Source: Candidatus Latescibacterota bacterium (GTDB lineage: Bacteria > Latescibacterota > UBA2968 > UBA8231). Taken from it: a DNA stretch of 64,000 nt. Positions 47,778 to 64,000 of the stretch are shown here, one piece after another. Below the pieces are notes generated by a model. The model searched no databases and was not told the DNA's origin. It saw only the letters and a program-made list of their open reading frames with translations. Location: assembly GCA_964291625.2 (NCBI GenBank), contig OZ220090.1:864001-928000 (forward strand). The letters are read 5' to 3'. The translations under genes were made by a program, and so were the position numbers. Within the stretch, counting starts at the first letter, position 1. Each line of letters opens with the position of its first letter.

Positions 47778-50474
47778 TCACTCTCTCAGGTACGCCGCTT
47801 TCCGCACGGCTTCCAGCCGTCCGTCCACCTCCAGGGCGAAAAGGTAGATTCCAGCCCCCCTATCCCCGGGCGTCCATGTGAACCGGCTGCGGCCAGCGGG
47901 CACGGCCGCGTCGACCAGAACCCCCTCATACTGGCCCAGGGTGTTGTAGACCTTGAGGGTAGCCCACGCCGTCCTGCCCAGATCGAGGTTGAATGCGACC
48001 GTTGAGGAGAAGGGATTGGGAGTCGACTCCGACAGAACGAAGGGCACCCAGGAGTCGCCCGTGCCACGATGGGTGTAGACACTGTTGGCCGCGCCCGGGG
48101 TTCCACCCGCCTCAAGGGAAGCCATCCAGCTCGCGGGGTCTTCGTTGTCCAGATCGTAGTGGCGCAGTTCCAGGGTGGGGCCGTCCCCGTCGGCCTCCTC
48201 CGGCCAGGGCGGATCATCGCCATAGACGACCGAGTCGACCAGCAAGCCGTGACGGTCGTACAGGCGAATCGATTCTCCGCTGTTCCTCAATCCGAAATCG
48301 AAGTCTCCGAGGCAAGCGGCTTGGGACAGGAACTGCAGGGCCCTTCGGTCCTGACAGAGCACGAGGAATCCACCCGGCTGAACGAGGGTTCGATCGGGCA
48401 ACACGAAGGAGTGCTCATCGTTGCCGTCCCTGAAGAACCAGCCGGACAGATCGGCCGGGTTGTCACCCGCATGGTACAGCTCGACCCAGTCCCCCGTATC
48501 CCGGCCATCGGAGGAGTGGTAGTTTATCTCGTTGATCACGACCTCCGGGGAGGGAAGGGAGATCCTGGAGTAAACCCAGTCTGCGCGAGATGTCAGCGTT
48601 GCCAGGGCAGGGTCCAGCAGCTTCAATGTATCGCCGGAGGAAATCTCAAAGAAGAGATCACCGAATACCGGTGTTCGGGGGAAGAGATGCTGGGCGACAT
48701 CTCTCTTCGAGGAGAGTACCAGGGTGTCCCCCGCGGCAAGGCGGGTCCCCGGGGGGAACATGAAGCGGTTGAAGTACTCCCCGGACTGGAAGCTGCAGTA
48801 GGCGAGGTTCAGCTCTGATCCACCGGCGTTTGCGATTTCGACGAAGTACTCATTCCGCATCTCATGGACCTCGCCAATCCTCAGCCGCTCATACTCCTTC
48901 CTGGTGGCGCCACTTGCATTCAGGGCCAGGGTCTTGGTGGCCTTGTAGTTGATGTAGAACAGGCCGTTGGGCGGATAGCTGTAGGCCCCGGCCCGGAAGG
49001 CATAGGGTACGAGGCCGAGGAAGTTGGCGGGAAGAAGGAGGCGGTTGCCGTACACCAGGTCCCCCGCCTGCAGATCGTCGTGCTGTCCGTCGTCAAAGAG
49101 GGGGAGCTTCCTGATCTCCATGGCCTCTCCCCAGGTGTAGGAAGTCAGGTCGGTAGTGTACTCGACGACTACCGATTGGGGAACGGGAGAAGTTGCGCGA
49201 AAGATGACGCCCCGATCGTCCCCCATGGTTACAGGGAATGGAGTAGAGCAGTACAGATTCGACAGGGGTTCCTTTTCGAAGAAGGTAGAGTTGGTGAGAG
49301 AGGATCTCCTGGCGCTCAAGAACCCTTTCAGGCGGGAGATCTCCCGATCAAAATCCTCGTTTGTGCCTCTCTTGAAATCATCCAGGTATACGTCAGATCT
49401 GATCAGTCCGTAAGTCGAATCGATCTGAGCCTCCACCAATTCAAAACCCCGGCCTGTAACCGTATGGACCATCTTCCAGAAGGCTCGTCGAAGAGTCTCG
49501 TACTCCATCAGCCTTTGGAACAATAGATGGTATCGAAAGGAGTAAGTCAGGTAGGTAGTTTCGAAATAGGGTCGGTATTCGCCAGTCCAGTGGTTGCCGA
49601 AAGAAGCGTCATGATCCCACGGCAGAATCTGCTCCAGCCTTCCCTCGGGGTTGAAATAGAGCAAGGTGTTCTTTACCACCGAGTCAAAGCTGGAGATCGC
49701 ATAGGCAACGGCGAAATAGTGGAGAGCACCCTCTACGTTCACAATGTGAGGCAACCGCGCCTGAAGATCCTCGTGGGACAGGTAGAAGACCTGATTGAAC
49801 AGGCGCTGCAAGTCCGTGTAGTCCGATTCTGTCCCTGCCTTCTTGTTCCATGCGACAGCATAGTTGGTGAAGTCCAGCAAGGGCGCGGTGCTCCCGGCGT
49901 TGTTCTCGGACTTGAAGAGACTGCCGGGCTGCAGATGGTAACGCTCCAGGAACTCCTCTCCAGGCTCTTCCACCTGAACGAAGACGCCCATGAACATGTC
50001 GTTGACCATGAGGCTGATGTGCCGGACAGCAGGCGCCGGATGTCCAAGGGACCGAAAGAGCATCATGGCCAGGGCGTTGCGCATCAGGGAGAGGTCGGTG
50101 TACTCGGCGTTGAGATTGAGTTCTCTCACTCCGAGTGGATTCCGGCGGTTCTCAAACCAGACTTTCCAGCTCTTCTTCCGGTGCTTGCGGGCCGTGGCTC
50201 CCCTGAACCTCACCTCGCACGCCTGCCTCTGACCGGCAAAGGAGAATCGGGCGGGGAATCGAGTCTCTTCGTGGGGTGACTGATTCAGAGCGTCCAGGTC
50301 CTGGGGATCGATGGTCAGGTGATACACGGGGAGTCTGAGCTGTTCCTCGCTGGCGAGGACAGGGATGACCGTGACGGAGACCAGGACCAGGATTGGTGCG
50401 AGGAAGGGAAGGGCCCATGTGCCATGGTCCGACTTGGCGCCGAACCGTGCATCACGCCGCAACGTCATCGCCAC
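47778..50474 (-). CDS. Secreted CotH-family kinase with lamin-tail domain(s) and FlgD/T9SS-CTD-like C-terminus
   Basis: VRFRG..KKSWKV, LNAEYTD.SLMRN, KN..LY, LPWDHDASFG; VVINEINYH..DWVELY; PNPF...VYNTLGQ; N-terminal hydrophobic signal. Confidence 0.85.
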   Translation of the reverse strand: MAMTLRRDARFGAKSDHGTWALPFLAPILVLVSVTVIPVLASEEQLRLPVYHLTIDPQDLDALNQSPHEETRFPARFSFAGQRQACEVRFRGATARKHRKKSWKVWFENRRNPLGVRELNLNAEYTDLSLMRNALAMMLFRSLGHPAPAVRHISLMVNDMFMGVFVQVEEPGEEFLERYHLQPGSLFKSENNAGSTAPLLDFTNYAVAWNKKAGTESDYTDLQRLFNQVFYLSHEDLQARLPHIVNVEGALHYFAVAYAISSFDSVVKNTLLYFNPEGRLEQILPWDHDASFGNHWTGEYRPYFETTYLTYSFRYHLLFQRLMEYETLRRAFWKMVHTVTGRGFELVEAQIDSTYGLIRSDVYLDDFKRGTNEDFDREISRLKGFLSARRSSLTNSTFFEKEPLSNLYCSTPFPVTMGDDRGVIFRATSPVPQSVVVEYTTDLTSYTWGEAMEIRKLPLFDDGQHDDLQAGDLVYGNRLLLPANFLGLVPYAFRAGAYSYPPNGLFYINYKATKTLALNASGATRKEYERLRIGEVHEMRNEYFVEIANAGGSELNLAYCSFQSGEYFNRFMFPPGTRLAAGDTLVLSSKRDVAQHLFPRTPVFGDLFFEISSGDTLKLLDPALATLTSRADWVYSRISLPSPEVVINEINYHSSDGRDTGDWVELYHAGDNPADLSGWFFRDGNDEHSFVLPDRTLVQPGGFLVLCQDRRALQFLSQAACLGDFDFGLRNSGESIRLYDRHGLLVDSVVYGDDPPWPEEADGDGPTLELRHYDLDNEDPASWMASLEAGGTPGAANSVYTHRGTGDSWVPFVLSESTPNPFSSTVAFNLDLGRTAWATLKVYNTLGQYEGVLVDAAVPAGRSRFTWTPGDRGAGIYLFALEVDGRLEAVRKAAYLRE

Positions 50475-51222
50475 GGCCCCTTCCTTCGAGACAGCTGTCG
50501 ATGACGTAGCGGTACTTCGAGTATCCGCGCTGCACCAGACAGAAGCGCTTGATCAGGTCCAGGGCCCAGAACGGCACCAGGGACTCGGTCTTGATCTCCA
50601 GGACGACGGGAGAGTCCGTCCACTGCGCGGTGACCTCGTCGTCGTAGTAGCTCATCTCCCCGTCAGGGCTCCACAGGTCGTATGAACCGCGCATCAGGCG
50701 GTAGCGCATGGCGCGGTCGAAGGTGATGCGGCCGTAAGCGTCGACCTCGCTGACGAAGGGCTCCCGTTCGTAGCGCACGTGCAGGACTGGTTCGGTACCG
50801 TACAGATGGTGCAGGTCGACGAAGGTGCGGGGCATGGCCTCGCGCCGGGGCGGTGTGCGGTCCCGCCGGCGGACTTGAAGCACCTCGGGCCACTCGCTCG
50901 CGGCGATGCGCTCGCGGACCTTCCAGACGGTGCGGCTGTGCCGGTACTTGACCTCGAGGGTGGCGGACTCGACGCGGCCGGTGCCGTAGTAGCGGACCCT
51001 CGGCTTGAAGCGCAACAGCTGGCGTAGTCGGGTGTCGTGGTAGAAGCGCAACCCGGGCGTGTCCATGTAGACGCTGTTGACCGTGTAGCCTGGCTCCTCC
51101 GCGGGGAGGTTGGCGTCGAGGGAGAACAGGGGCTGGATGAACTCGCGGATCTCCGCGGCCAGCTCTTCGGTCACCGTGTACTTCAGCTCGTACCGGTGGA
51201 TGGGGGCGAGGTCAACCGCCAT
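50452..51222 (-). CDS. VTC-domain (polyphosphate polymerase, CYTH-like tunnel) protein
   Basis: RYELKY, NSVYMDTP, KPRVRYY, LEVK, YEREPF, RITFD, VLEIK, YSKY. Confidence 0.88.
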   Translation of the reverse strand: MAVDLAPIHRYELKYTVTEELAAEIREFIQPLFSLDANLPAEEPGYTVNSVYMDTPGLRFYHDTRLRQLLRFKPRVRYYGTGRVESATLEVKYRHSRTVWKVRERIAASEWPEVLQVRRRDRTPPRREAMPRTFVDLHHLYGTEPVLHVRYEREPFVSEVDAYGRITFDRAMRYRLMRGSYDLWSPDGEMSYYDDEVTAQWTDSPVVLEIKTESLVPFWALDLIKRFCLVQRGYSKYRYVIDSCLEGRGRGDDVAA

Positions 51223-52528
51223 GGCCCCTCTCCTGCGGCGGCAGCGGCGGCAGCGACTGCGGACCGTCGATCCCCAGCTTGTAGTACAGGAAGTAGAGGG
51301 CGTGGGACAGATCGCGCTCGCCCTCGGCGATGGCGACCTGGGCATCCAGGATCGTGCGCTCCAGTTCGAGGATCTCGTCCGCCGGCACCGTGGGGTGGTC
51401 GTACGTCCGGACGACCACGAGCGACGCGGCCTGGATGACGGCCTCCCCCTCCCGTCGAGTCAGGTTGCGGGCGAGCAGTGCCTCGGCGTAGTCGGAAAGC
51501 CCTTCGCAGACCTCGTCGGCAATGCGCTGCCGAACCGCTGCGGCCTCCAGCCCGCTCTCGGACACCGCAAGGGAGAGGCCGGCCAGGTTGTCCGCATTGC
51601 GGTTGAACAGAGGGAGCTCCACCCCGAAGGCCAGCTCGTGCCAGTCGTCTTCACCCCCCTCGACATGTCGCGACATCTCCAGGAAGGACAACTGCGGCAG
51701 GAGTCGCCGCCTCTCGAAGTCGTGCCTGTCGAGGGCGAGCTGGTGCCTCTCCTCGGCCAGACGAAGCTCCGGGCGGTTGGCGTAGGCGAGGGTCACGAGC
51801 TCTTCCTCGTTCCCGACGATCCCGGGAAGGGGCTCGGCGGCCAGCTGGATCCGCGCCGAGACGCCCGTCAGACGCCGCAACCTGCGCTCCTCCTCCCGCA
51901 GCGCATGCAGACTTCGAAGGTGGACCTGCCGCGCCTCGGCGACGGCCGTCCTGGCCTTGGTGAGGTACACGATCGACCGCCGGCCATGATCGACCATGGT
52001 CTCGATCTGGGAGATCCGCCGGCTCTCGTTCTCGATCCGCATCGCTGCCAGGCGCGCCAGCTCGGCGTACATGGTGAGGTCGGCGCAGGACCGGCGCACC
52101 CGCGAGGCCAGCCAGTGCCGCTCGCGTATGGCCTCGGCCCTGCGCTCCCACATCGTCACTTGCCTCCGCTGTCTGCGCACCCTCGCTTCGCCGAGTGCCG
52201 GCGGACGCCAGCGGATGCCGATCTCGTACTCGTCGATCCGGGCCCTCCTGCGCCGGGCGGCCAAGTTGCGCACGCGGATCTCGGGATTGTCGATCCAGTC
52301 GAGGGAGCGCATGCGGTGAGTGCGGAGATCGGCCTCTGACTCGAGCAGGCCGATCCTGGGGTTGTTGCGCAGACCGATGGCCACCGTCTCTTCGATGGTC
52401 AGGGGCAGCTCCTGTCCCTCGCCGCCGGCAGCCCCCGCGTCCTGGCCGCCCTCGCTCGGGGCCGCAGTCGAGCAGAGGCCGACGCCGAGGGGGACCAGCA
52501 CGGCTGCGAGAGACCGGCCGCAGCTCAT
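51212..52528 (-). CDS. TolC/CzcC-family outer membrane efflux protein
   Basis: Signal peptide, LTIEETVAIGLRNNP, AYANRPEL, LLPQL, GVELPLFNRN; coiled-coil pattern. Confidence 0.8.
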   Translation of the reverse strand: MSCGRSLAAVLVPLGVGLCSTAAPSEGGQDAGAAGGEGQELPLTIEETVAIGLRNNPRIGLLESEADLRTHRMRSLDWIDNPEIRVRNLAARRRRARIDEYEIGIRWRPPALGEARVRRQRRQVTMWERRAEAIRERHWLASRVRRSCADLTMYAELARLAAMRIENESRRISQIETMVDHGRRSIVYLTKARTAVAEARQVHLRSLHALREEERRLRRLTGVSARIQLAAEPLPGIVGNEEELVTLAYANRPELRLAEERHQLALDRHDFERRRLLPQLSFLEMSRHVEGGEDDWHELAFGVELPLFNRNADNLAGLSLAVSESGLEAAAVRQRIADEVCEGLSDYAEALLARNLTRREGEAVIQAASLVVVRTYDHPTVPADEILELERTILDAQVAIAEGERDLSHALYFLYYKLGIDGPQSLPPLPPQERGHGG

Positions 52529-53613
52529 GGCCCGGCTCTCCCCTCGGCCGCGCCGCGCCCTGCGCCAGTAGCCGCGAAGATCACGGAGGATCGATCGACG
52601 AGGCCCACGCGCACCGACTCGCCAGGCAGCAGAAGGTGACCGGCCTCGAGGACGACGCGCACCTTGCGGGCCCACAGCATCTGCCCGCGAAGCCACAGCC
52701 GCTCCGGCATCGGTGAGTACCCTGGATGGACGAAGTCGATCCGCCCCCTGGCGTCGAAATCGCTCGACCGTCTCGACATCACTTCCACCGCCTGTCCGAC
52801 CCGCCACTGCAGGTCCTCGGTCTCCGGCACGTAGACCTCCACCACGGAGACCTCGGCGCTCTCCACGGTGATGATGGGCAGGAAGGCGTCGACCGTACTG
52901 CCCGGCCGAGCCAGGATCCGGGAGACCAGGCCCGCAGAGGGCGACCTGACCGTTCGATACTCGATGCGCTGGTCTATCCGCGTGATCGACTGGCGGACCT
53001 CGTGGATGCGCTGCATGCGGTCTCCGAGAAGGGAGGTCAGGACGCTGTCGCCGAAGGCCGGATCGTCGCTGCCGAGCTGCACCACCTCGGGCCGGAGGAG
53101 CGCCGACCGTTCGGCGACGGACCGCGCCAGGGCATCGCGGCGAATGGTCATGCGGGTCAGGTCCCGGTCATGGCCCAGGCCGGCCTTCTCCGCGGCCACC
53201 AGGGCGTCGATCTCCCGGCCGAGGGCGTCGAGCTCCGCCTCCTCGGCCTGTACCTCGGCGTATTCCCCGGAGACGCGCAGCCGCAGCAGGTCGTACTCGA
53301 CGTGGTGGCGGCGCCGGTCCGCCGCCGCGATCGACTCCAGGACGGTCAGCTCTTCCGCACGCAGTCGCCTCTCCGCCGACAGGTCCGACACGTCCAGGCG
53401 AGCCAGGACCTGTCCGGCCACGACGGTCTCGCCCACTGCGGCGTGGATCTCGTGGATGGTCCCCCCTTCGCGCGCACCCACCGACTGCTCCGTCGACACG
53501 ACGGTACCCAACAGATACGGATCGACCTGCCACTGCCAGTAGCCGCAGACGGCAGCGATCACGGCCGCGACCCACAGGCCACGGAAGGAGTTCTTCGTCA
53601 GCCAACGCTTCAT
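52525..53613 (-). CDS. HlyD-family periplasmic adaptor
   Basis: N-terminal TM, lipoyl halves GETVVAGQVLARLD and VRSPSAGLV..PG, VYVPE, GRIDFVHP, LLPG. Confidence 0.85.
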   Translation of the reverse strand: MKRWLTKNSFRGLWVAAVIAAVCGYWQWQVDPYLLGTVVSTEQSVGAREGGTIHEIHAAVGETVVAGQVLARLDVSDLSAERRLRAEELTVLESIAAADRRRHHVEYDLLRLRVSGEYAEVQAEEAELDALGREIDALVAAEKAGLGHDRDLTRMTIRRDALARSVAERSALLRPEVVQLGSDDPAFGDSVLTSLLGDRMQRIHEVRQSITRIDQRIEYRTVRSPSAGLVSRILARPGSTVDAFLPIITVESAEVSVVEVYVPETEDLQWRVGQAVEVMSRRSSDFDARGRIDFVHPGYSPMPERLWLRGQMLWARKVRVVLEAGHLLLPGESVRVGLVDRSSVIFAATGAGRGAAEGRAGP

Positions 53614-53616
53614 GGA

Positions 53617-54300
53617 CTACACCTCGACTGCCGAAGTGTGGTTCATGAAGGTCAGCCCGCGAATGCCTTCGATCTCTCCCAGGGCCTCGATCAGTCGCGT
53701 CGCATCCGCCTCCCGGACGAGCTTGACCTGGTAGGTGCAGTCCACCAGGTCGCCCTGGGCCACGTCGCGCATCGTCACCAGGCCGAAGGTCCGCGGTATC
53801 TGCTGCAGTACCTGGGCTACCTGGGCGGCGAAGTCGGGCGCCGCCGGGATCTGGAAGCGCACGAGTCCATCGTATTTCATGCGCGTGCCGAAACGAGAGG
53901 AATGCATGACCACGGCGATGGTACAGAACAGGGCCGTGGCGAAGGCGGCAGCGATGTAGCTCTGCACCCCGCTGGCCACGCCCGCACCGAGAGCGGCGAA
54001 GAGGAAGACCAGGTCCCGGGGATCGCGCAGGTTGGTGCGGAAACGTATGATCGCCAGCGATCCCACGATGCCGATGCCCCGGGCCACGTTGTCGCCGATG
54101 GCGATCATCAGCAGACAGGTGACGAGGCTGCCCAGGACCATGGTCTCCATCAAGCCCCGCGACCAGGAGAGGCCCTGGAACGTCCACTCGTAGACCACGG
54201 CGATCGTGCTCGACAGGCAGAAGGCGACTACCAGGGAGAGCAGCACCGTGTTCCAGTGGAGCTTGATCGTCCCGAAATCGAGCAACAGGCTGTCCATCAT
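53617..54300 (-). CDS. DUF4956-family membrane protein
   Basis: IGDNVARGIGIVGSLAIIRFRTNLRDPRD..FLF...G; C-terminal soluble domain; AAGGAG RBS. Confidence 0.88.
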   Translation of the reverse strand: MMDSLLLDFGTIKLHWNTVLLSLVVAFCLSSTIAVVYEWTFQGLSWSRGLMETMVLGSLVTCLLMIAIGDNVARGIGIVGSLAIIRFRTNLRDPRDLVFLFAALGAGVASGVQSYIAAAFATALFCTIAVVMHSSRFGTRMKYDGLVRFQIPAAPDFAAQVAQVLQQIPRTFGLVTMRDVAQGDLVDCTYQVKLVREADATRLIEALGEIEGIRGLTFMNHTSAVEV

Positions 54301-54333
54301 CCGATCTCCTTCATTTGGACACAGCGCCACACG

Positions 54334-54349
54334 TGCAAGAATTGTGCCG
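54334..54349 (-). promoter_or_regulatory. Sigma54 (-24/-12) promoter of the DUF4956-HlyD-TolC-VTC-CotH operon
   Basis: Minus strand CGGCACAATTCTTGCA: GG-N10-GC, close to the TGGCAC-N5-TTGC consensus, 33 nt before the ATG. Confidence 0.8.
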
Positions 54350-54436
54350 TCCACGAGGCCCCGGCCGCGGTACCGCCCCGGCCTGTCTCTGGCTGCACCC
54401 CGGACCACTGGCAGGAGACAGTCCCATCGGTGGTCC

Positions 54437-54520
54437 GTCCGGTTCTCCGGGACGACTCCGTCTTTCCGCTTTCCTGGACGGGCCTTCGGCCCGGTCGGCG
54501 CTCCGTCCGATTCTCCGGAC
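54437..54520. promoter_or_regulatory. Three GTCCG-N6-CGGAC-like dyads, candidate enhancer (UAS) sites
   Basis: GTCCGgttctcCGGGA (54437-52), TTCCGctttccTGGAC (54464-79), GTCCGattctcCGGAC (54505-20). Confidence 0.55.
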
Positions 54521-54652
54521 CGGGGCAGCAGCCGGCCCGGGGCATGGCAGACCGCCGGCCCCACCGGTGCCGGCGCGGCCGACTTGCAGACGATCAGGGT
54601 GCTGAGGGGGCGAGGGAGACGCAGAGGCCGCGTCTCCCCGGGACGCGGCGGG

Positions 54653-57600
54653 CTACTCGCGGGAGGCCGGGATCACCTGGAGGAGCTGGCGCTGCCGCAG
54701 CTCTCCATCCTCCAGGTACACACAGACGTACAGTCCAGGAGACACCAAGCGGCCGCCGCGGTCGGTTCCATCCCAGGCGAGGGTGCGGCTCTCCGGACCT
54801 GCGGTCAGTCTCTCCACCAGCTCGCCCGCCGTGTTGAAGATCCGTATCTCGACTCTTCCCGAGCCACGGAACCAGAAGGTCGCGGGCTGCCCCCGCGAAA
54901 CCGGATTGGGATAGCTGTAGACGGCGATCTGCTCGTCGATCACCTGCGCCGTCAGGATCACGGTGCGGGTGCCCCCGTCCCCGGTCAGGCTCAGGGTCTC
55001 CTCGATCCTCTCCGACTCCCCCGACAGACCGCCGTCGATCCCCGACCGGAAGAGGATCCACACCTCCGCCGTATCCCCGGGCGCCAGGCTGAAGGACGAC
55101 AGTTCCGCGGCGAACTGCCGGGTGTCGTCGACTGTCCGGGGATCGAGATTGAGCCGTGCATCGCCGCGGTTGTGCACCGGCAGGCTCTTCCACAGGGAGT
55201 CGCCCACGGAGACGGCGCCGAAGTCCAGGGTATCGGCAAGGACTTCCAGCACGGGCGCCACTCCTGTGATCGTGAACGACACCTGGATTGTCGGCTGGTC
55301 GGGATCGCTGCTGTCTATGGTCAGGACACTCGAGTCCGGGCCGAGCCGATCGGGAGAGACACGGATCGTGATCTCGCTGGTCTCCCCGGGTTCCAGGGGC
55401 CAGGGAAAGCGGTCCTCCAGAGCCTCCATGGGCTCACCGTCCCAGAGGAATCCCTCGATGACCAGCTCTGCCTCACCCGTGTTGGCAAGGGTCAGGACCA
55501 CCGGGACGGCCTGATCTGCCCGGACCTCGCCCAGTTCCACCAGGCGCGGCTCGACTTCCAGGCGCGGCTTGATTCCCCGCCCCCTCAGCGGCACGTCGAG
55601 GAAGCTCTTGTCAGGGTCGTTGCTGGTCAGGCCCAACGATGCCTCCACAATACTGGCGTCGCGAGGACTGAAGGTGACCACCACGGTCGTATCCCTCCCC
55701 GGTTCCAGGTCGAAGGACTCGGGCGATACCTGGAATTGCTCATCCGTCGTCGCTGCGCCCACACCCAGCAGACCTGTGCCGCTGTTTTCCACGACCAGGG
55801 TCTCTTCGCCGGACTTGCTCACGGCCACTTCTCCGAAGAAGACCGTATCGGAGACGGATACCTGGATCTGCGGCTTCTGGCTGCCGGCTTTGAGATCGAC
55901 GATGATCACCGGCGCATTCGGATCGTTGGTCGTGAGCACCAGCGCCGCCTCAATCCTCGGGTAGTTGGCCGAAGGATCGAATTTCAGCTCCATGACCAGA
56001 CTGTCACCCGGACTGATGCTGACCCCGGGGCCGGGGCGCTCCACCTCGAACTCCGGTTTGGTGGTGATGAGCTGGTTGATCACCAGATCGGCCTCGCCCC
56101 GGTTGTAGAGCGTCAATTCCCTGTGGACGGGCTCGCCGGAGATGCCGAAGTCGACGCGATCGGAGGACAGACCGATCTCGGGGATCAGCTGGGACATGAC
56201 AATGCTCACGCTGTCGCTCTCGAGCCCCGGGGCGGCGACCTTCACCGTGGCGATTCCGGGCAGGGTGCCCGCGGTAAAGGAGACGCTGGCCATGCCCTCC
56301 ACCACCACGGCGCTGGACACCTCCAGGTCGCCCAGATCCTCGGGACCTTCGACAATCGAGAAGGAGATCTCCGTACTGTTGTCGGTCTTGAGCCGCCCCC
56401 CGAGGGAGTCCTGCACCACGGCGGTCAGGATCGACGTGTCCTCGCCGTTGGCCCGGATGCTCGCAGGTGAGGCGGTGAGGACGATCTTGAACCGGGTCAG
56501 GACGATACCGAAGGCCCCTCCCCCGACGGTGCCGGCGTAGACTTGCCGGGGACGAGAGAGCCCCATGGCCACGGAGAGCACATCGGGGTGGGTCAGACCC
56601 GGCTCGATGGGCTGCCAGCTGTCGCCGCCGTCCAGGCTGCGGAAGACCCCGCCGCGGGTGCCGGCGTACAGGTGTGATGAATCGGCCGGGTCCGCGACCA
56701 GGGCGCGAATCGACGAAGAGGTCAGCCCCGCGTTGATCCCCTCCCAGGTGAGGCCGTCGTCCAGGCTGCGGAAGATCCCGCCGTCGGTTCCGGCAAAGAC
56801 GGCACGGCCCGCCCCATCCAGGGCCAGGGCCCGCACCGCCAGCCCCCCCATGCCGGCGCTCGAGGGCGTCCAGGTCGAGCCCCCGTCCCCGCTGCGGTAG
56901 ACCCCCTCCCCGGTGCCGGCAAAGACAACCTGCCCCCCCGGATGCAGGGCCAGGGCCCGCACCGACAGGGCAGCCAGCCCCTGGCCGTCGGACGGCCAGC
57001 TCAATCCCCCGTCGAGGCTGCGGAAGACCCCCTTCTCCGTGCCCGCAAAGACGGTCGTCCCCGTCGCCCCCGCCGCCAGGGACTGCACGGTCAGGGTATC
57101 CAGCGCCTCGGCCGCTGACGACCAGGTCGAGCCGCCATCGAGGCTGCGGAAGACTCCGCTGCGAGTGCCGGCGAACATCCGCAGAGGCGAACCCGGGTCG
57201 ACCAGGAGCGCATGGACGTCCAGCTCGGCCTGACTGCGCGTCCAGGAAGCGCCCCCGTCGAAGCTGCGGAAGATCCCGGACTCCCCCCCCGCGTGCAGGC
57301 GCAGTGCGTCGGAAGGATCGACGGCCAGGGTGCGCACCGACATGGCTGACAGACCGGTGTTCGCCTCCTCCCACCTCGTCCCCCCGGCGAGGCGGAACAC
57401 CCCGGCCCGGGTACCCGCATACAGCCGCGAGCCGTCGAGGGAATCCAGCCACAGGGCACGCACGGGTACCGTGGGCAGGCCCTCGTCGAGAGCGGTCCAG
57501 GAAGCGCCCCCGTCGAGGCTGCGGAAGACCCCGGACCCGCCCGCCGCGTAGAGCCGCAGGTCGTCGGAGGGGTCGACGGCCAGTGCCTCGACCGCTGACA

Positions 57601-58336
57601 GCCGGGACCCCTCGCCGGCCGGCTCCCAGCTGGCGCCCCGGTCGCCGCTGCGGAAGAGGCCGGCGTCCGTGCCCGCGTACACCCATGCCAGGCCGCCGTC
57701 CACGGCCAGGACCGATACCCCGGCCCCGTCCAGCCCCTCGCCGGCGTCGCTCCACGTCTGCCCCCTGTCCTCGCTCAGGAAGACGCCGGCCTCCGTACCC
57801 GCGTACAGCCGCAGGGTATCGGCGGCCTCCACGGCCAGGGCATGCACGGGACCCGCCAGCCCCTGGCTGGGGTTGTTCCACGTCACCCCCCCGTCCGTCG
57901 TCGACAGAAAGCCGGCGTCCGTACCCGCGTACGCGCGCAGGGGGTCGCGGGGATCGATGGCCAGGGCCGCCACCGACAGAGGCTCCGACTCCTCCCCGGA
58001 GGACCACGTCGCGCCGCCGTCCAGGCTGCGGAACAACCCGGCATCGGTGCCGGCCAACAGGTAGGAGGGGCGGTCCGGGTGCACCGCGAGACTCCGCACG
58101 ACCCGGCCGGCGATGCCGGAGGCGGTCCAGGTCGCGCCCCCGTCGAGGCTGCGGAAGACCCCATCCATGGTGCCGGCATACACGACCTGCCCGTCGCCCG
58201 GCCGCGTGGCCAGGGCCTGGACCGGCCCCCCGTAGAGACCGAGCGGACTCCAGAGATTGTCGGCGCTCCAGGCCCTCGGCGCGGCTCCGAGCAGCATCAC
58301 GCCCGCCAGCAGGCTTCGCCTCCCCCGCGCCGTCAC
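54653..58336 (-). CDS. Large secreted protein: BNR/Asp-box beta-propellers + Big_1-like + four ASH/choice-of-anchor-D-like Ig domains + FlgD-like CTD
   Basis: Signal peptide; 13 GxFRSxDGGxxW-type repeats; LTASPASIRANG; DFG.V...N.G...L...ND units; YPNP...IFNTAGELV...WDG. Confidence 0.85.
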   Translation of the reverse strand: MTARGRRSLLAGVMLLGAAPRAWSADNLWSPLGLYGGPVQALATRPGDGQVVYAGTMDGVFRSLDGGATWTASGIAGRVVRSLAVHPDRPSYLLAGTDAGLFRSLDGGATWSSGEESEPLSVAALAIDPRDPLRAYAGTDAGFLSTTDGGVTWNNPSQGLAGPVHALAVEAADTLRLYAGTEAGVFLSEDRGQTWSDAGEGLDGAGVSVLAVDGGLAWVYAGTDAGLFRSGDRGASWEPAGEGSRLSAVEALAVDPSDDLRLYAAGGSGVFRSLDGGASWTALDEGLPTVPVRALWLDSLDGSRLYAGTRAGVFRLAGGTRWEEANTGLSAMSVRTLAVDPSDALRLHAGGESGIFRSFDGGASWTRSQAELDVHALLVDPGSPLRMFAGTRSGVFRSLDGGSTWSSAAEALDTLTVQSLAAGATGTTVFAGTEKGVFRSLDGGLSWPSDGQGLAALSVRALALHPGGQVVFAGTGEGVYRSGDGGSTWTPSSAGMGGLAVRALALDGAGRAVFAGTDGGIFRSLDDGLTWEGINAGLTSSSIRALVADPADSSHLYAGTRGGVFRSLDGGDSWQPIEPGLTHPDVLSVAMGLSRPRQVYAGTVGGGAFGIVLTRFKIVLTASPASIRANGEDTSILTAVVQDSLGGRLKTDNSTEISFSIVEGPEDLGDLEVSSAVVVEGMASVSFTAGTLPGIATVKVAAPGLESDSVSIVMSQLIPEIGLSSDRVDFGISGEPVHRELTLYNRGEADLVINQLITTKPEFEVERPGPGVSISPGDSLVMELKFDPSANYPRIEAALVLTTNDPNAPVIIVDLKAGSQKPQIQVSVSDTVFFGEVAVSKSGEETLVVENSGTGLLGVGAATTDEQFQVSPESFDLEPGRDTTVVVTFSPRDASIVEASLGLTSNDPDKSFLDVPLRGRGIKPRLEVEPRLVELGEVRADQAVPVVLTLANTGEAELVIEGFLWDGEPMEALEDRFPWPLEPGETSEITIRVSPDRLGPDSSVLTIDSSDPDQPTIQVSFTITGVAPVLEVLADTLDFGAVSVGDSLWKSLPVHNRGDARLNLDPRTVDDTRQFAAELSSFSLAPGDTAEVWILFRSGIDGGLSGESERIEETLSLTGDGGTRTVILTAQVIDEQIAVYSYPNPVSRGQPATFWFRGSGRVEIRIFNTAGELVERLTAGPESRTLAWDGTDRGGRLVSPGLYVCVYLEDGELRQRQLLQVIPASRE

Positions 58337-59934
58337 GGCGGTTCCGTCCGTCCCCTCAGCAGCTCGAAGAGGCGGTTGCTCCCCTGTGCCTTCCGCAGAT
58401 ACTCCAGCTGCGCCAGTCCGGCCAGGTCGACCCGGCGGCCGGCCAGGTCGATGGGACCGCCGCGGCTGAGGCGGGCCGCTTCGCGATAGCAGTTGGCGGC
58501 GCCGGCGAAGTCGCCGGAGAACTCCGACAGCAGGCCGGCCACGTAGTAGGTGTGGGGGTAGCTGGGATCCAGCCGCGCGGCGGTCAACAGCCCCTGCTCC
58601 GAGTAGGGGGGCTCCCGGCTCCGCAACCGGCTGTAGACCCTCGCCACCGCGGCGACGGCCTCGGGGTGGTGCTCCAGGGAAAAGGAGCCGCGCAGCCGCA
58701 CCCGGCCTTCCAGGAGAATCTCGAAGAGATAGGGCCCCTCGAGCAGGTAGCCAGTGCCTTCAAGCCAGTCCGCGGCGGGCTGGAAGGGAAACGCCACCCC
58801 GTGGTCGGAGAGGTGCAGATCATCCGTACCGACCTCTTCGAGGACCACCCCGTCGGGACCGTAGAGGATCAGCTTCGGACGTCGATCGGCCCAGTCCTGC
58901 CCCGAGGCGGGGTAGCGAAGCTCGATCTGCAGCAGGGCTTCATCCACCGGCCACAGACGGGCCTCGGGGGCCGGCTCTCCGTCGCGCTGCAGGCGCCAGC
59001 CGTCGAAGTGGAGGGGAAACTGGTACCGCCCCCAGGAGGCGGCCACCCCCAGGGTCCTGGTGTCGCCCAGGAAGGGCCGATCCTCCACGACGTACTGGGC
59101 GGTGCCGCGGCCCGAGCCGACCGTCAGACCCAGGCGCCAGCCCGTGCCCACGCCCGAGGTCCGCTCGACGGCACCGCTCAGGCCCAGGTCGAGAGGCCCC
59201 GGCGCCAGAAGCGCGTTGGCACCGAGGGTCCAGCGTCCGCTGCGAGGCTGGTAGCCGAATGACAGGAACGGGCGTCCCCGTACCACGGCGGCGCTCAGAA
59301 CCGGGTTCCAGGAGGCTCCTTCCAAGGTCGACCAGGCATTGCGCACCGTCGCTCCGAGGCGCAGCTCGAAGGCCTTGTCGACGGCCAGGGCCGCCAGTCC
59401 TCCGAGGTCCAGCCCGACGTCGCTCCAGCTCTGGCTGCCGGTATCGACCCGGAGCCAGTGGATCCCCAGGCCGAGCTGGGGCGGGCCTGCATCGCTCCAG
59501 GGCCGCAGCCCCTCAAACGCCTTGCCCGCTGCCATCACGACACGGGCTTCGCCATGGGAACCGTACCCCTCGATGTTCCCCTGGGCGTCCGACCGCAGCA
59601 CGCGGCCGGTGCCCAGGCGGTCCAGGCCGACTCCCGCGCCCCACGAGTTGGTGCTGCGCACGAGACTGACCAGGTCGTGGCCGAGGTCCAGCCCATCGAA
59701 CAACTCGGCGTGGGAAAAGGCCGCGTGGTACCGTCGCTCCAGCCGTGCCAGACCCGCCGGGTTCCAGTAGAGCGCCCCCTGGTCCGCGGCCACCGCCACC
59801 GAGGCCGGCCCCAGCACCGCGGCCCGTCCCCAGGCCGCGGGATGGGCGAAGGCCCCCTCGACCTGGCCCTGGACCCGCTCGGCGCCCGCCAGCAGGAGCG
59901 GCCAGGCCCACGCCAGGCTCCTGGCGCACTTCAT
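58333..59934 (-). CDS. PorV/FadL-like outer-membrane beta-barrel with C-terminal TPR-like region
   Basis: Signal peptide, ALYWNPAGLARL, GLDLGGL, GATVRN, alternating beta pattern; C-terminal AARLDP.Y...YY..G...GDFAGA..YREA. Confidence 0.6.
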   Translation of the reverse strand: MKCARSLAWAWPLLLAGAERVQGQVEGAFAHPAAWGRAAVLGPASVAVAADQGALYWNPAGLARLERRYHAAFSHAELFDGLDLGHDLVSLVRSTNSWGAGVGLDRLGTGRVLRSDAQGNIEGYGSHGEARVVMAAGKAFEGLRPWSDAGPPQLGLGIHWLRVDTGSQSWSDVGLDLGGLAALAVDKAFELRLGATVRNAWSTLEGASWNPVLSAAVVRGRPFLSFGYQPRSGRWTLGANALLAPGPLDLGLSGAVERTSGVGTGWRLGLTVGSGRGTAQYVVEDRPFLGDTRTLGVAASWGRYQFPLHFDGWRLQRDGEPAPEARLWPVDEALLQIELRYPASGQDWADRRPKLILYGPDGVVLEEVGTDDLHLSDHGVAFPFQPAADWLEGTGYLLEGPYLFEILLEGRVRLRGSFSLEHHPEAVAAVARVYSRLRSREPPYSEQGLLTAARLDPSYPHTYYVAGLLSEFSGDFAGAANCYREAARLSRGGPIDLAGRRVDLAGLAQLEYLRKAQGSNRLFELLRGRTEPP

Positions 59935-61825
59935 TCGAACAGTCCCACCAGGTCGTCCCTCCCCAGCATTCCCGCCAGGACGGCCGCCCTGCGGGCATTC
60001 TCCGCGGACAGCCCGCCGCGCCGCGCGATGCGCAACATCTCCGCCCACGCCTCGCCGGCCGTCACCGGCACCAGCACTTCGACCTCGGCGCCGGGATCGA
60101 CCTGCAGACGCTCGACGTAGTCGGCCTGGCCGGGACGCTGGACGTGCAGCGTGTAGGCCCCGGGAAGGAGCGGCGAGAAACGGATGGGAAGACGGTCACC
60201 GAGGCGGTTCTCCTCGGTCGCCTCCTGCAGGAAGAGCCGGGCCCGAAAGGCGACCTCGTCCCCCAGGTCGAGGGTATCGACCTGCGCTCTGACGCGCAGT
60301 CCGGCCGGCTCCTGCTCGAGGGAAACCCGCACCGTGGTCTCGTCGACCACCTCGATGCGTTCGGGGGCGACCGGACAGCCGACCCCGTACCGGGCCGCTC
60401 GCAACTCCAGCTGCCTCAGGTTGGCCCGACCACGGATCAGGCGCTCGTCGAAGACCACGAGGCCCTCCGAGTCCGCCCGGCCCAGCAGGAGGTCCGCGGC
60501 CCACAGGTCGATGCCGGGCCAGGGTACCCCTTGCCCGTCGACCACGGTCACGGCTACGGGCTTGGGCTCGAACACGACCCGCAGATCGTAGACGCCGGGC
60601 CCGGGAGACTCGGCGGCAAGCGGCCCCGCTCGAAGACGAGCCCCAACTGGACGAGGCTGATCCGTTCGAGCTCGTCGGGGGCCAGTCGCTTTCTCACCTG
60701 CACACGTCCCCGGCGGTTCGTGGTGCCGGCCGCCGCGGCGTCGAGCAGGACGTCGACGCCGGGGAAGGGCCGCCCGGAGGTGTCCAGCACCTCGATGGTG
60801 AACAGGTTCTCGGCCGGGCGCAGCAGGACCGACTTGCGGATGCGGCCCGGACGGAGCATCTCCACCACGGGCGAGGTCGGACTGGCTTCGTACCCGGGCC
60901 GCACCACGGCGAAGGTGTGGCGGCCAGGCTCCACGGGGAAGACCCCCGGGGTCACTCCGAGAGTGTCGCCGTCGAGCACGACGATCGAGCCAGGGGGATC
61001 GGAGTCCACCTGGAGGAGGGGCGGCACGATCGAGAATCCGCGCACGGCCTCCTCGTTCCAAAGCCGGGGCTCCCCGCCGGCGGCGTCGGTCACCCGGACC
61101 GCGACCTCCCCGAGGCCGACGTGGCCATCGCCGTCTTCGTCGCGGCCCGTCTCCAGCTCCTGGAGCAGGCGAGCAGTGAACCCGCCGTCCACGGCGCGCC
61201 GGCTGCCGACCTCGACCACGCCGGCGCTCTCCGGAAGGAAGTCCCCCCGATGCGCGCCGGGTGTGAATCCGTCGTACTCCCGGTCGTCGGCGGGCGAATC
61301 GGGGCCGGTGAACCCCTTGCCGCCCTCCCCGCTGTACGAGGCGTCGATGACCGCGCAGGTCCGGGTCGTTCTCAGGCGCTGGAGGAACTGGCCGATCTCG
61401 TCGTCGCGCAGGAAGCTCTCCCCCGTCGCCCCCTGGGCGTCAAAGGGCAGGAGGCACTCGTCGTACTGATCGACCTGCTCGTCGAGAAAGAGATCGTCCT
61501 CGAGGCGGGAACCGCGTCCCGAGAAGTAGAACAGGAACAGATCGTCCCCGCCCACCTGGCTGATGAGCGCCTGAAAGGCCCGATGGATGCCCTCGTAGGT
61601 GGCGGCCGAATCGGTGAGGGCCACGATGCGGTCGAACCCGCCTTCCACGGTCAGGAAGCGCTGCAGGGCGCCGACTTCGGAGACCGGGTGCTGCAGGGTC
61701 GGCACCCCCGAACTCTCGGGATAGGCCGCCACGCCCACCAGCAGGGCCCAGCGTTGGGCGCTCCAGGAGGCTTGACACAGACCCAGGAGCAGGACCGCCA
61801 CAGCCAACCCCGTCCGCCGGCCCAT
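59931..61825 (-). CDS. Secreted caspase-like (C14) pseudo-protease + PEGA domains, split by one frameshift near 60625
   Basis: RWALLVGV, YFSGRG, ECLLPFDA, IDASYSG; PEGA VDSDPPGS...GVTP; the frame of 59931-61061 continues the protein and ends in an ATGA overlap. Confidence 0.7.
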
Positions 61826-61829
61826 GGAC

Positions 61830-63860
61830 TCACCGCTGCTTGAGACGGTACTTGCGGATCAGGTCGTAGAGACGGCTGCGCGACAGGCCCAGATCGCCGG
61901 CCACCGCCTCCAGCTGCCAGTCCTTCTCCTCGAGCTTGTCCAGGATCCACTTGCGCTCGAATGCCTCGCGGGCCTTGCGCAAGGTCAGACCCTTGTCGAG
62001 ATCGAGCTCGGCCGCTTCCTCGGGCCCCTCCTGCAGGCGGCCCCAGAGGTGAAGGGCCTGCAGGCGCTCTCCCCCGGCCATGGCCCGGGAGTAGGTCAGC
62101 TGGTTCTCCAGCTCGCGGATATTCCCCGGCCACGGATAGCCTCCGAGCAGTTCCAGGGCCGCCGGGTCGATCCCGGCGGGGTAGTCGGCCAGGAAGTGCT
62201 CCACCAGCAGCGGCACATCCATGAGCCGCTCGCGCAGGGGCGGCAGGGGGATGACCATCACGTAGAGGCGGTAGAACAGGTCGGCTCGGAACCGCCCCTC
62301 GGCGACCTCCTTGTCGAGGTCCCGGTTGGTGGCGCAGACCAGGCGCACGTCCACCGGGCGCGGATGCTCCTCGCCCACCCGCTGTACCTCCCCCTCCTGC
62401 AGGACCCGCAGCAGCTTCACCTGGGTGGAGGGGCTGGTCTCGCTGATCTCGTCCAGAAGCAGAGTGCCGCCGGTCGCTGCCTCGAACAGTCCCTTGCGAT
62501 CCTGTTCCGCCCCGGTGTAGGCCCCCTTCCTGTGACCGAACAGCTCGCTCTCGAGCAGACTCTCGGTCAGGGCGCCGCAGTTGATGCCGATGAACGGCCC
62601 CTCCCGCCGGGCGCTCGTCCGGTGGATCGTGCGCGCCACCTCCTCCTTCCCCGTGCCGGTCTCGCCGTGGACCAGCACGGTTATGTCCGATTCACTCGCC
62701 TTCTGCATGAGGGCGAAGACGCGCCGCATGTTGTGGCTCTGACCGATGATGTGGGGGAACGGCTGCTCCCCCCGGGGCACGGGTTCGACCTGGGGCAGGT
62801 GCACACCTCCGCCCGCCGGGACCGGGGCCTCTTCGCCTCCCGTTCCTCCCCCGTCCCGTGCGCGCCGCAGGGCTTCTTCCAGCAGCCGGTTGCGGATGCG
62901 GCAGAGACCATCGTCCCTCCGGCGAACGGCCCCCAGCAGTTCCATCCGGGTAACCACCGGGGAGGTGCGGTCGTGGCGCGGCGGCTCTCCGCCGTCGAGC
63001 AGGGCCCCGAGCCACCGGGCGCCCTCGGCCGAACGGGTGAGGCCCGCCACGACCCGCTGCAGATTGTCGTCGCCGCCGTTGAGCAGATGCTCCGCCGCCT
63101 CTCCGACCCCCAGGTCGGGATGCTCTTCCAGGAGCGCACACAGGCGCGCCGTGAGATTGGGGTGCCCCTGGGTCCACTCGTAGACCGGGGCGGTCAGGGA
63201 CCCCCCTCTGGCGTCGGCCCGCTCGAGGAGCTGGAGCATCTGCCCGACCCCCTCGATGTCGAAGTCGGTGGTGTAGACCTCCTCGCTGATGTTGAAGGGC
63301 GACAGACCGCTCTCCGGAGCGATGAGGGTTCGCGGGTCCGTGGCCCCGGCCAGGACGAATACATATCGCTCGAACTCGGGCTGGGTAGCGCGTTCGTTGT
63401 AGACCGTGCGGATGGTGCCGAAGAAGCCCTCCCGCCAGGGCTCGGGAATCGCCTCGAACTCGTCGAGAGTCACGACGATGCGCTTCACCCCGGCGCAGCC
63501 CGCTATCGTCTTGAGGTCCTGGTAGAACCCGATCGATTCGGCGCCGGCTTCCACCGTGGTCCGCTCCGCCACGGAGAGGGCCCCGGCAATGCGATCCCCG
63601 ACAAAGCCGTAGAGCTGGGCGCATCCGGCGTCCTTCACCGGGGTCAGGTCGATCGGCACCGAGACGTACACGTCGGCTGACAGGCGGCGGTGCAGGTGAT
63701 ACAGGAGGCTGGTCTTTCCCGTCTGGCGGGCCCCCAGCACCGTCACGTAGTGGCCGCGCCGGACCAGTTCCAGCACTTCGTCGTCCACCGCTCTCTCCAC
63801 GTAGAGGCTCTGGTCGGGATCGGCGATGGGACCGCGCGTCTGGATCTTCCTCGGTGCCAT
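61830..63860 (-). CDS. AAA_35/STAND-like NTPase fused to a sigma54 enhancer-binding AAA+ domain and Fis-type HTH
   Basis: YVER, GARQTGKTS, TLDEFE, SPFNI, WTQGHP; then GETGTGKE, ESELFGH.KGAYTGA, LDEI, RFRADLFYRL, WPGNIREL, LGLSRSRLY. Confidence 0.88.
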   Translation of the reverse strand: MAPRKIQTRGPIADPDQSLYVERAVDDEVLELVRRGHYVTVLGARQTGKTSLLYHLHRRLSADVYVSVPIDLTPVKDAGCAQLYGFVGDRIAGALSVAERTTVEAGAESIGFYQDLKTIAGCAGVKRIVVTLDEFEAIPEPWREGFFGTIRTVYNERATQPEFERYVFVLAGATDPRTLIAPESGLSPFNISEEVYTTDFDIEGVGQMLQLLERADARGGSLTAPVYEWTQGHPNLTARLCALLEEHPDLGVGEAAEHLLNGGDDNLQRVVAGLTRSAEGARWLGALLDGGEPPRHDRTSPVVTRMELLGAVRRRDDGLCRIRNRLLEEALRRARDGGGTGGEEAPVPAGGGVHLPQVEPVPRGEQPFPHIIGQSHNMRRVFALMQKASESDITVLVHGETGTGKEEVARTIHRTSARREGPFIGINCGALTESLLESELFGHRKGAYTGAEQDRKGLFEAATGGTLLLDEISETSPSTQVKLLRVLQEGEVQRVGEEHPRPVDVRLVCATNRDLDKEVAEGRFRADLFYRLYVMVIPLPPLRERLMDVPLLVEHFLADYPAGIDPAALELLGGYPWPGNIRELENQLTYSRAMAGGERLQALHLWGRLQEGPEEAAELDLDKGLTLRKAREAFERKWILDKLEEKDWQLEAVAGDLGLSRSRLYDLIRKYRLKQR

Positions 63861-63885: not shown

Positions 63886-63999
63886 CTACGCGGAGGCCAG
63901 GTTATCTCCGTTCGCCGCGGCCAGGTCCCGGGCAAACCCCGTTCCCGGCTTCACCTGCTCGATGGCCTCGGCGATGTTCTTCACTCTGTGGAGGATGTC
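63886..63999 (-). CDS. 3' end of a gene entering from the right edge, product unknown
   Basis: Open frame DILHRVKNIAEAIEQVKPGTG...LASA* ending TAG 25 nt before the activator start. Confidence 0.45.
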   Translation of the reverse strand, partial: DILHRVKNIAEAIEQVKPGTGFARDLAAANGDNLASA

Positions 64000-64000
64000 C

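Follow-up and report, generated by a model that had tools for sequence, protein, structure and literature searches.

In the window analysed here, a 64,000-nucleotide stretch (G000:C2:864001-928000) of a Latescibacterota genome of 5.9 Mb, 70% GC and two contigs, the operon coding for DUF4956, HlyD-type, TolC-like, VTC-domain and CotH proteins (hereafter the VTC operon) is preceded by a 354-bp spacer that carries a sigma-54 -24/-12 element and, upstream of it, a group of dyad sequences. We propose that these correspond to a functional sigma-54 promoter and its enhancer sites, and that the switch is an activator encoded 7.5 kb upstream of the operon, a bacterial enhancer-binding protein (bEBP) with an AAA_35-type N-terminal domain. 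Judged from sequence comparison, this full chain is probable, and the local bEBP is the protein most likely to bind the family of sites described below. The regulon would comprise seven promoter regions, the VTC operon being one of its arms. Computation gave the sequence elements themselves, how well they are conserved, how they occur together across the genome, and how their distribution matches that of the activator, as detailed below.

The -24/-12 element CGGCACAATTCTTGCA (54334..54349, minus strand), of the form CGGCAC-N5-TTGCA, was located by pattern matching in a region left as intergenic by our gene caller. Its GG and GC are 10 nt apart, at the exact -24/-12 spacing, and the reading of this element at 54349-54334, upstream of the DUF4956 ribosome-binding site (RBS), in an earlier note on this DNA was thus correct. 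The extended sigma-54 consensus is TGGCAC-N5-TTGCW, and CGGCACAATTCTTGCA fits 15 of its 16 positions, the mismatch being a C for T at the first one. An AGGAG RBS is present at 54310-54306, followed by ATG codons at 54300 (the called start, 35 nt from the element) and at 54297 (about 37 nt), only the second of which is kept in relatives. If the GC is taken as -13/-12, the start of transcription deduced from the element would lie near 54323, the position expected in the earlier note. The string alone is within what chance allows, since the window has two matches to TGGCAC-N5-TTGCW with at most one mismatch where 0.8 would be expected, and at least two were obtained in 18 of 100 shuffles. Across the genome, TGGCAC-Nn-TTGC occurred 17 times at n=5, compared with 0 to 6 times at the other values of n from 0 to 12, and 36 of the 47 GGCAC-N5-TTGC sites, CGGCACAATTCTTGCA among them, fell in the 12% of the genome that our gene caller left as non-coding. 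The genome also encodes sigma-54 itself (rpoN; Sigma54_DBD match, E 9.9e-62), whose presence the earlier note had asked about. An alignment of the orthologous spacers of G000 and the related species G002 and G006 (57% of reference columns invariant in this spacer, IGR1, and 62% in a second intergenic region, IGR2) showed 13 of the 16 positions of CGGCACAATTCTTGCA to be invariant, with the GG/GC core wholly kept. We infer that the 354-bp spacer holds a working sigma-54 promoter for the DUF4956-HlyD-TolC-like-VTC-CotH operon.

A different view is that this match is not the main promoter, and that the VTC operon is expressed mostly by read-through from the six-gene operon upstream of it, or from a promoter of a kind not recognised here. 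The eleven genes of both strings do lie on one strand, and one-mismatch sigma-54 matches are expected at the rate of 0.8 per window given above. In addition, a GC-rich hairpin just past the stop of the 1227-aa gene, the last one of the upstream operon (54614..54638, minus strand, with perfect 9-bp arms) had a folding energy of -24.5 kcal/mol and a z of -1.9, with 11 of 200 shuffles equally good; without a T tract and not kept in relatives, it was unconvincing as a terminator. In the spacer, consensus scans detected neither a sigma-70-like promoter nor a T-tract terminator, and the Rfam scan matched no family. Nevertheless, the -24/-12 core is kept in three species within a spacer only 57% invariant, CGGCACAATTCTTGCA stands at the right distance from a conserved RBS and start codon, and it shares its enhancer sites with five other intact sigma-54 promoters. 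Moreover, the upstream operon has a promoter of the same kind, so that even with read-through the VTC operon would still be under a second sigma-54 promoter with the same sites. Altogether, we consider the read-through scenario very unlikely.

The dyads had been described in the earlier note as three GTCCG-N6-CGGAC sequences about 90-170 bp further upstream. The distances were close, as the starts of the dyads precede the -24 GG by 172, 131, and 105 nt (centres at -189.5, -148.5, and -122.5 with respect to the predicted +1), whereas the shared form held for only one of them. Site 1 (d1; GTCCGGAGAATCGGAC, 54505..54520, minus strand) is an exact GTCCG-N6-CGGAC, invariant at all 16 positions in the three species, and ranked 18th genome-wide with an independently trained position weight matrix (PWM). 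Site 2 (d3; GTCCAGGAAAGCGGAA, 54464..54479, minus strand) is a conserved variant, GTCCA-N6-CGGAA, with 14 of 16 positions invariant (PWM score 17.1, rank 25), and the weaker site 3 (d2; GTCCCGGAGAACCGGAC, 54437..54453, minus strand) has an N7 spacer, GTCCC-N7-CGGAC, with 12 of 17 positions invariant (PWM score 12.7). Site 2 lies 41 bp downstream of site 1, and as this is about four helical turns, both would be on the same face of the DNA; the 41-bp pairing recurs in five modules of contig 1. Site 3 is included in a 24-nt direct repeat of site 1, 88% identical and at 68-bp spacing in G000, and the 14-mer CCGGAGAAYCGGAC has two copies in the whole 5.9 Mb, both in the spacer and 68 bp apart. Conservation of the motifs upstream of orthologous operons was also borne out, the promoter core and site 1 being kept in both G002 and G006, where the activators are 92% and 90% identical to that of G000, respectively, and the DUF4956 proteins 93%.

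Two broader searches for the dyads were discarded. The generic GTCCG-N6-CGGAC pattern occurred 27 times in the genome against 11 to 29 times for spacers of 0 to 13 nt, and it was rejected as a genome-wide signal, while a mismatch scan with the 17-mer for relatives of the sites was too noisy (31 matches at three mismatches and 333 at four). Three features do exceed chance: the rarity of the 14-mer CCGGAGAAYCGGAC, the conservation of the elements in the sister species, and the genome-wide association of the dyad family with sigma-54 sites. Between the sites and the promoter, a conserved block GTCCGGGGTGCAGCCAGAGACAGGC (54381..54405, minus strand) has 21 of 25 positions invariant and is perhaps a half-site or a place where the DNA bends. 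Another block, CAGCACCCTGATCGTCTGC (54586-54604, minus strand), was found upstream of site 1, with 16 of 19 positions invariant in the three species.

A more specific family of sites, GTCCRG-RAAA-NNGGAM, was found to be enriched in G000, with pairs 40-41 bp apart upstream of sigma-54 promoters. Seven promoter regions carry it, those of the VTC operon, the bEBP operon, and five modules in contig 1; six of them are intact and one has a defective -12 element. For the bEBP operon, the sigma-54 site is GGCACGCTTGTTGC (G000:C2:931019-931006), just past the end of the window and 70 nt upstream of the first gene of the operon, that of a 1016-aa protein. It is preceded by GTCCAGAAAATCGGAC and GTCCGGAAAAGCCGAC, 40 bp apart, the promoter and its two dyads spanning window-equivalent positions 67006-67118. 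Conservation was seen for this promoter and for the first of its dyads, and in the sister species a 32-bp insertion holds an additional site. Beside these sites, between them and a divergent plus-strand gene that starts at 931250, a 44-nt block (L017; G000:C2:931150-931193, window-equivalent about 67150-67193) with 39 of 44 positions invariant contains the inverted repeat CCGTTTCCGCCGGAACGG, and may be an operator or promoter for the divergent operon.

The five contig-1 modules, found with a relaxed pattern, are near-identical sequences of about 200 bp (L069-L073; G000:C1, near 1665211-1665314, 1932510-1932644, 3232086-3232232, 3649738-3649900, and 3930718-3930850). Each of them consists of GTCCGGGAAACCGGAC (GTCCGAGAAACCGGAC in one case), GTCCAGGAAACTGGAA 41 bp further on, and then GGCAC-N5-TTGC; the defective one is the copy near 3649900, with a 1-nt deletion in its -12 element. 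Modules orthologous to this set were found in G002, G004, and G006. Their target genes encode secreted proteins, namely two VIT-vWA proteins, one VIT protein, one LDL-receptor-B/NHL propeller, and one LRR-CARDB-M66 peptidase, and a FlgD_ig-type domain is present in all of them, as it is in the 1227-aa protein of the window.

The candidate activator is encoded by a 701-aa open reading frame (ORF) at 61830..63860 on the minus strand, with Pfam matches to AAA_35, Sigma54_activat, and AAA_lid_14. It combines an N-terminal AAA_35/STAND-like NTPase, a sigma-54 AAA+ domain whose loop reads GAYTGA, and a probable C-terminal helix-turn-helix (HTH) with the helix SRSRLYDLIRKY, so that the receiver, GAF, or PAS sensor usual in such activators is replaced by the NTPase. 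The AAA+ domain matched Sigma54_activat (PF00158) with an E of 3.7e-70 over residues 396-562, with the Walker motifs GETGTGKE and LLLDEI in the translation, and the N-terminal domain matched AAA_35 (PF14516) with an E of 5.4e-13, with intact Walker A (GARQTGKTS) and Walker B (VTLDEFE) motifs; its top Atlas feature matches were AAA_35 and nSTAND clusters. Pfam reported no repeat domain between residues 263 and 396. The cut-off of an NCBIfam equivalog (NifA, NorR, NtrC, RtcR, PspF, etc.) was not reached by any of the 25 matches listed out of 29, and PADLOC offered no system model for the cluster beyond "caspase" and weak candidate-family matches. In other proteins, the AAA_35 domain appears fused to TIR, CHAT, SpoIIE phosphatase, or OmpR-type DNA-binding domains. 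Only 3 of 29 database relatives of the domain are joined to a sigma-54 activator, and of 168 genomes of the phylum only 3 encode this fusion.

The association between this protein and the sites was analysed through its homologues. The helix SRSRLY[DE]L was found in six bEBPs, encoded in G000, G002, G006, G015, G005, and G023, and every one of them adjoins dyads and a sigma-54 site. In the last three genomes the homologues are 42-59% identical and have a different or diverged N-terminal domain with the same helix: that of G015, from a different genus, is 42% identical and contains nSTAND2, Sigma54_activat, and HTH_8; that of G005 is 53% identical over residues 287-674; and that of G023 is 59% identical over residues 357-675. 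Downstream of the activator gene in these three genomes, no more than about 170 nt past its stop codon, lie a sigma-54 promoter and dyads belonging to this family, with GTCCGGGAAAGCGGAC and GTCCAGTCGACCGGAC 42 bp apart and followed by TGGCACGACACTTGCA in G015, and GTCCGGAGAACAGGAC and GTCCGGGAAACTGGAC 33 bp apart in G005. The genes driven in G015 and G005 are STAND/PEGA genes instead of a VTC operon.

The PWM was trained with only the five sites located beside the homologues of G015, G005, and G023, and then applied to G000 (11.8 million strand positions). As many as 14 of its 25 best matches fell in the seven promoter regions, and 12 of the 25 were located at most 260 nt upstream, on the same strand, of a GGCAC-N5-TTGC site, for an expectation of about 0.03. 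A search of genomes and metagenome contigs with the bEBP yielded a single orthologue, on a G006 contig, and the other contig-search matches, limited to the AAA+ part or to distant relatives of the N-terminal domain, served as negative controls. The control loci totalled 40. At six of them, with activators of other helices (L008-L013), no sigma-54-linked dyads were detected, and none of the other 34, those with an identifiable activator ORF among 44, had the SRSRLY helix. These same 34 loci gave one PWM match of at least 15, at 2.9 kb from the gene end.

These data also bear on the identity of the binding protein. The promoter and the sites could be real and be bound by another protein, be it one of the roughly 18 other sigma-54 activators, a repressor, or an architectural protein, the local bEBP being merely nearby. 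This genome gives 19 strong Sigma54_activat matches, Fis-type HTHs are broadly alike, and in G004 a module exists for which no cognate bEBP was detected. However, the SRSRLY helix is present in the local bEBP and in none of the other 18 of G000, diverged homologues with this helix were always found beside the same dyads, contrary to the 40 control loci, and the sites are gone together with the bEBP in G007, G009, G001, and G003. The nearest other bEBP genes on the same contig are more than 120 kb away. For these reasons a different binder seems unlikely, and the comparative evidence of shared sites, helix, controls, and co-distribution supports the connection between the VTC operon and the neighbouring activator that had been put forward from the letters of the window.

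Concerning co-distribution, the exact motif GTCCRGGAAACYGGAM was found in 6 of the 10 genomes of the genus, with nine copies in G000, three each in G002 and G006, two in G004, and one each in G005 and G008, and it was not found in G007, G009, G001, or G003, all of them without such a bEBP. In G007, moreover, a gene 84% identical to a VIT-vWA target gene of G000 has no promoter module before it, which counts in favour of the local bEBP. The N-terminal domain of the activator was detected in G000, G002, and G006 only, both when 41 relatives and when 168 genomes of the phylum were searched. A search for SRSRLY-type HTHs in G004, G008, G007, G009, and G001 returned only HTHs of other activators, 31-38% identical. 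In G008, all that is left of a G005-type activator is its last 17 codons (RLYELIRKYGL...), which stand before dyads of the G005 type and a GGGCAT-type -24 element (L127, G008:C404:1540-1620) and are joined to the end of an unrelated ORF, as a result of a deletion or of a misassembly.

When the whole phylum was scanned for paired sites, 20 places were identified in 11 of the 168 genomes, 14 of them in G000, G002, G006, G004, and G015, where the places inspected all had a sigma-54 site. The other six, outside the genus and G015, had no sigma-54 site within 260 nt and look like chance or coding matches, their number being comparable to the eight matches of the reversed control pattern. DUF4956 copies that lie apart from the bEBP, one in G006:C5 (88%) and another in G010 (77%), had neither a sigma-54 site nor dyads. 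The first of them (L062, G006:C5:708862-709542) is a second DUF4956 copy of that genome, with a spacer of about 100 bp, behind a gene with a FlgD_ig-like C-terminal domain. The second (L045, G010:C282:90-170) belongs to another genus, in lower-GC DNA, and lies about 130 nt from a tRNA-like gene on the opposite strand, a setting that hints at an operon travelling as an island.

The repeated nature of the modules leads to another possible explanation, in which a repeated or mobile promoter cassette has left the dyads behind as inert relics, devoid of any binding function. Five near-identical copies of about 200 bp do exist in contig 1, and site 3 of the VTC spacer in G000 resembles a recent copy of site 1. 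In addition, one of the modules of G000 lies between a VOC-type gene and a VIT-vWA gene that are neighbours in G007 (a single contig, 95% complete, without such an activator), where the 84% identical VIT-vWA gene follows the same VOC-type gene by about 25 nt with no promoter module. Nonetheless, IGR1 and IGR2 share with the contig-1 modules the 16-bp sites and not their flanks, the sites are the best-conserved columns of the spacers, and the pairing at 40-42 bp, with the same orientation to the promoter, recurs in G015, of a different genus. This explanation is thus highly improbable.

Several points weigh against the promoter, its enhancer sites, and the local activator acting together as proposed. 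The promoter has a C instead of the consensus T before its GG, and the intergenic status of the element depends on a crude, GC3-based gene caller. Site 3 is degenerate in the relatives, whose form has 16 nt and an N6 spacer, and the power of the footprint is limited because the orthologous spacer is available from three kin species only. The sigma-54 contact loop is GAYTGA and not GAFTGA in G000, G002, and G006, although a Phe-to-Tyr change in this loop may be tolerated. At a threshold E of 0.001, HTH_8 (PF02954) was not detected in the activator, whose helix is visible by eye, while the match to the G015 homologue reached 8.4e-06 and the database relatives P0002 and P0003 carry PF02954. A single clear site, GTCCGGAAAACAGGAT, accompanies the activator of G023, and the PWM is circular for G015, G005, and G023, as it was trained on them. 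In G004 (83% complete, 400 contigs), a contig-1-type module was found on a contig of about 3.9 kb, and no such bEBP was found in this genome. The upstream operon may contribute to VTC expression by read-through as well, given that the hairpin is weak evidence of termination. Finally, the contigs of the RNA library described below cannot give start, strand, or level of transcription, and the presence of DNA in that library is possible.

With the local bEBP as activator, a plausible sequence of events can be drawn, that of classical enhancer-dependent activation, in which binding, signal, and activation are presumed. The STAND-like module would sense a signal, upon which the AAA+ ring would be released or assembled on the paired sites, with dimers of the activator on the two 16-bp imperfect palindromes of a pair, at about four helical turns from each other. 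Looping of the DNA would then bring the ring into contact with the promoter-bound sigma-54 holoenzyme, and hydrolysis of ATP would lead to promoter opening. Positive feedback is predicted, since the six-gene caspase/PEGA/STAND operon to which the activator gene belongs is preceded by these sites too. The proposal that the region from 47.8 to 64 kb forms one regulated unit therefore has to be modified: two units are involved, from 47.8 to 54.3 kb and from 54.65 to 67.1 kb, and the regulated set would extend beyond this region, as the promoter of the bEBP operon and five distant promoters carry the same sites.

Regarding the origin of this set, judging from G015 and G005 the activator seems to have acted first on STAND/PEGA/caspase genes, and we infer that the VTC operon and the genes for secreted proteins were recruited later, within the genus. 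The growth of the regulon seems to have taken place by copying a portable enhancer-plus-promoter cassette before genes for secreted proteins. A bolder interpretation, which we offer as a tentative and rather doubtful one, is that the STAND-sensor/bEBP fusion is the transcriptional output arm of a conflict-like caspase/PEGA/STAND cluster, which, instead of killing the cell, would activate itself, a CotH/VTC export module, and secreted adhesin-like and peptidase-like proteins, its regulon having spread by means of the cassette of about 200 bp. If true, this would amount to a cell-surface remodelling response in a sponge-associated lineage of Latescibacterota.

The gene order of the region is as follows. 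According to the ORF list and the gene caller, all the genes from 47.8 kb to past the end of the window are on the minus strand, and within both gene strings the gene caller gave gaps of at most 25 nt or gene overlaps, with a gap or overlap of at most 4 nt between the genes downstream of the bEBP. The upstream operon is headed by the 1016-aa caspase-PEGA-STAND NTPase (gene caller and Pfam), the 3' end of which occupies 63886..64000 and which continues to window-equivalent position 66936. Behind it and the activator come, from Pfam and NCBIfam, the presumably co-transcribed genes for a caspase-PEGA protein (60554..61825), a 214-aa PEGA-like protein (59931..60575), a 533-aa protein whose N terminus is weakly PorV-like (58333..59934), and the 1227-aa BNR/ASH-Ig protein, with its FlgD_ig C-terminal domain (54653..58336). 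The 354-bp spacer separates the latter gene from DUF4956.

The VTC operon begins with DUF4956 (53617..54300; Pfam DUF4956, E 1.6e-11), followed by an HlyD-type membrane-fusion protein, or periplasmic adaptor (52525..53613; Pfam HlyD_D23 and HlyD_3), which matched NCBIfam RND_mfp below the cut-off of that model. Next are a TolC/OEP-type outer-membrane channel (Pfam OEP) and a VTC-domain protein, polyphosphate-polymerase-like (Pfam VTC, E 5.9e-27), both with uncertain starts, at 51212..52501 (ORF open to 52807) and 50452..51222 (ORF open to 51345), respectively. A CotH kinase-like protein with two lamin-tail domains (47778..50474; Pfam CotH, E 6.5e-55, and LTD) closes the operon, CotH being its last gene, as the following one is convergent. 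The gene caller used is a home-made, crude one based on GC3 that leaves 12% of the genome as non-coding, and it missed the CotH gene (47778-50474), the neighbours of which have a GC3 of 0.87-0.90. Because the caller skipped CotH and not its neighbours, a lower GC3 and possibly a different origin are suggested for this gene.

In an RNA library (X1, labelled as a sponge metagenome), contigs 90-99% identical to parts of both operons were observed between 47000 and 64000. These contigs suggest a related strain in a sponge-type habitat, but as the share of words for X1 was small (0.16), this is taken as a lead only. None of the RNA contig pieces listed spans 54279-54392 in either run, and such a hole proves nothing.

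A sigma-54 promoter preceded by activator sites is a textbook arrangement, so there is nothing unusual in the promoter; the novelty lies in the AAA_35/STAND-type sensor placed on a sigma-54 activator. No description of this type of activator, or of the regulation of the CotH/VTC/DUF4956 module, was found in the open-access literature searched. The proposed control of the VTC operon would thus be a first concrete regulatory handle on the widespread CotH-VTC-DUF4956 module, in an uncultured phylum with hardly any known regulation, and the recognition helix and the 16-bp site make up a clean protein-DNA pair that can be tested in Escherichia coli without culturing the organism.

Among the known systems, the paired dyads of NtrC at glnAp2 share one face of the helix and precede the -24/-12 promoter by about 100-150 bp; activation there involves a DNA loop and the formation of an AAA+ ring. 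Paired dyads upstream of such a promoter are also present here, at a spacing of about 41 bp instead of the 32 bp or so of NtrC, and the activator, which matched the NCBIfam ntrC model below its cut-off, has no receiver domain or partner kinase. As for the N-terminal domain, MalT and AfsR are STAND-type transcription activators. They share with the STAND/caspase/PEGA conflict systems described by Kaur et al. 2020 (PMC7159879) the joining of an NTPase switch to variable outputs, as is the case here, and, as in the latter systems, caspase, PEGA, and STAND genes are found within one operon; the output here differs, being a sigma-54 AAA+ activator. In the main text of PMC7159879, "sigma-54" occurs zero times, and one passage names NtrC-like AAA+ ATPases.

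Regarding the target operon, an accessory module of CotH, polyphosphate polymerase, and DUF4956 has been described beside Gram-positive pel loci (bioRxiv 10.1101/768473), and the same three gene families are contiguous in the window. The present version differs in its additional HlyD adaptor and TolC-like channel, its diderm host within the Latescibacterota, and its sigma-54 promoter, and no pel locus was found beside the CotH-VTC-DUF4956 genes within the 47-64 kb stretch.

The NorR/norVW system of E. coli also presents a sigma-54 promoter, three upstream enhancer sites, and a neighbouring bEBP gene, with a regulatory N-terminal domain that gates the AAA+ domain (PMC2831303). The NCBIfam NorR model aligns to residues 370-674 of the activator, with 312.8 bits against a cut-off of 476, so the activator is not NorR; a GAF sensor is found there and an AAA_35/STAND-like NTPase here, and the sequence of the sites and the regulon also differ. 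For a sensor of the conflict type on a sigma-54 activator, the nearest precedent is RtcR, with its CARF-AAA+-HTH architecture. PADLOC RtcR_PspF2 was the best PADLOC match of the activator (residues 364-673, E 3.1e-105), while the score with NCBIfam RtcR (NF038308) was 281 against a cut-off of 650. The match is confined to the AAA+ and HTH part, the N-terminal domain being AAA_35 and not CARF, but in both proteins a sensor of the conflict or defence type has been placed at the N terminus of a sigma-54 activator.

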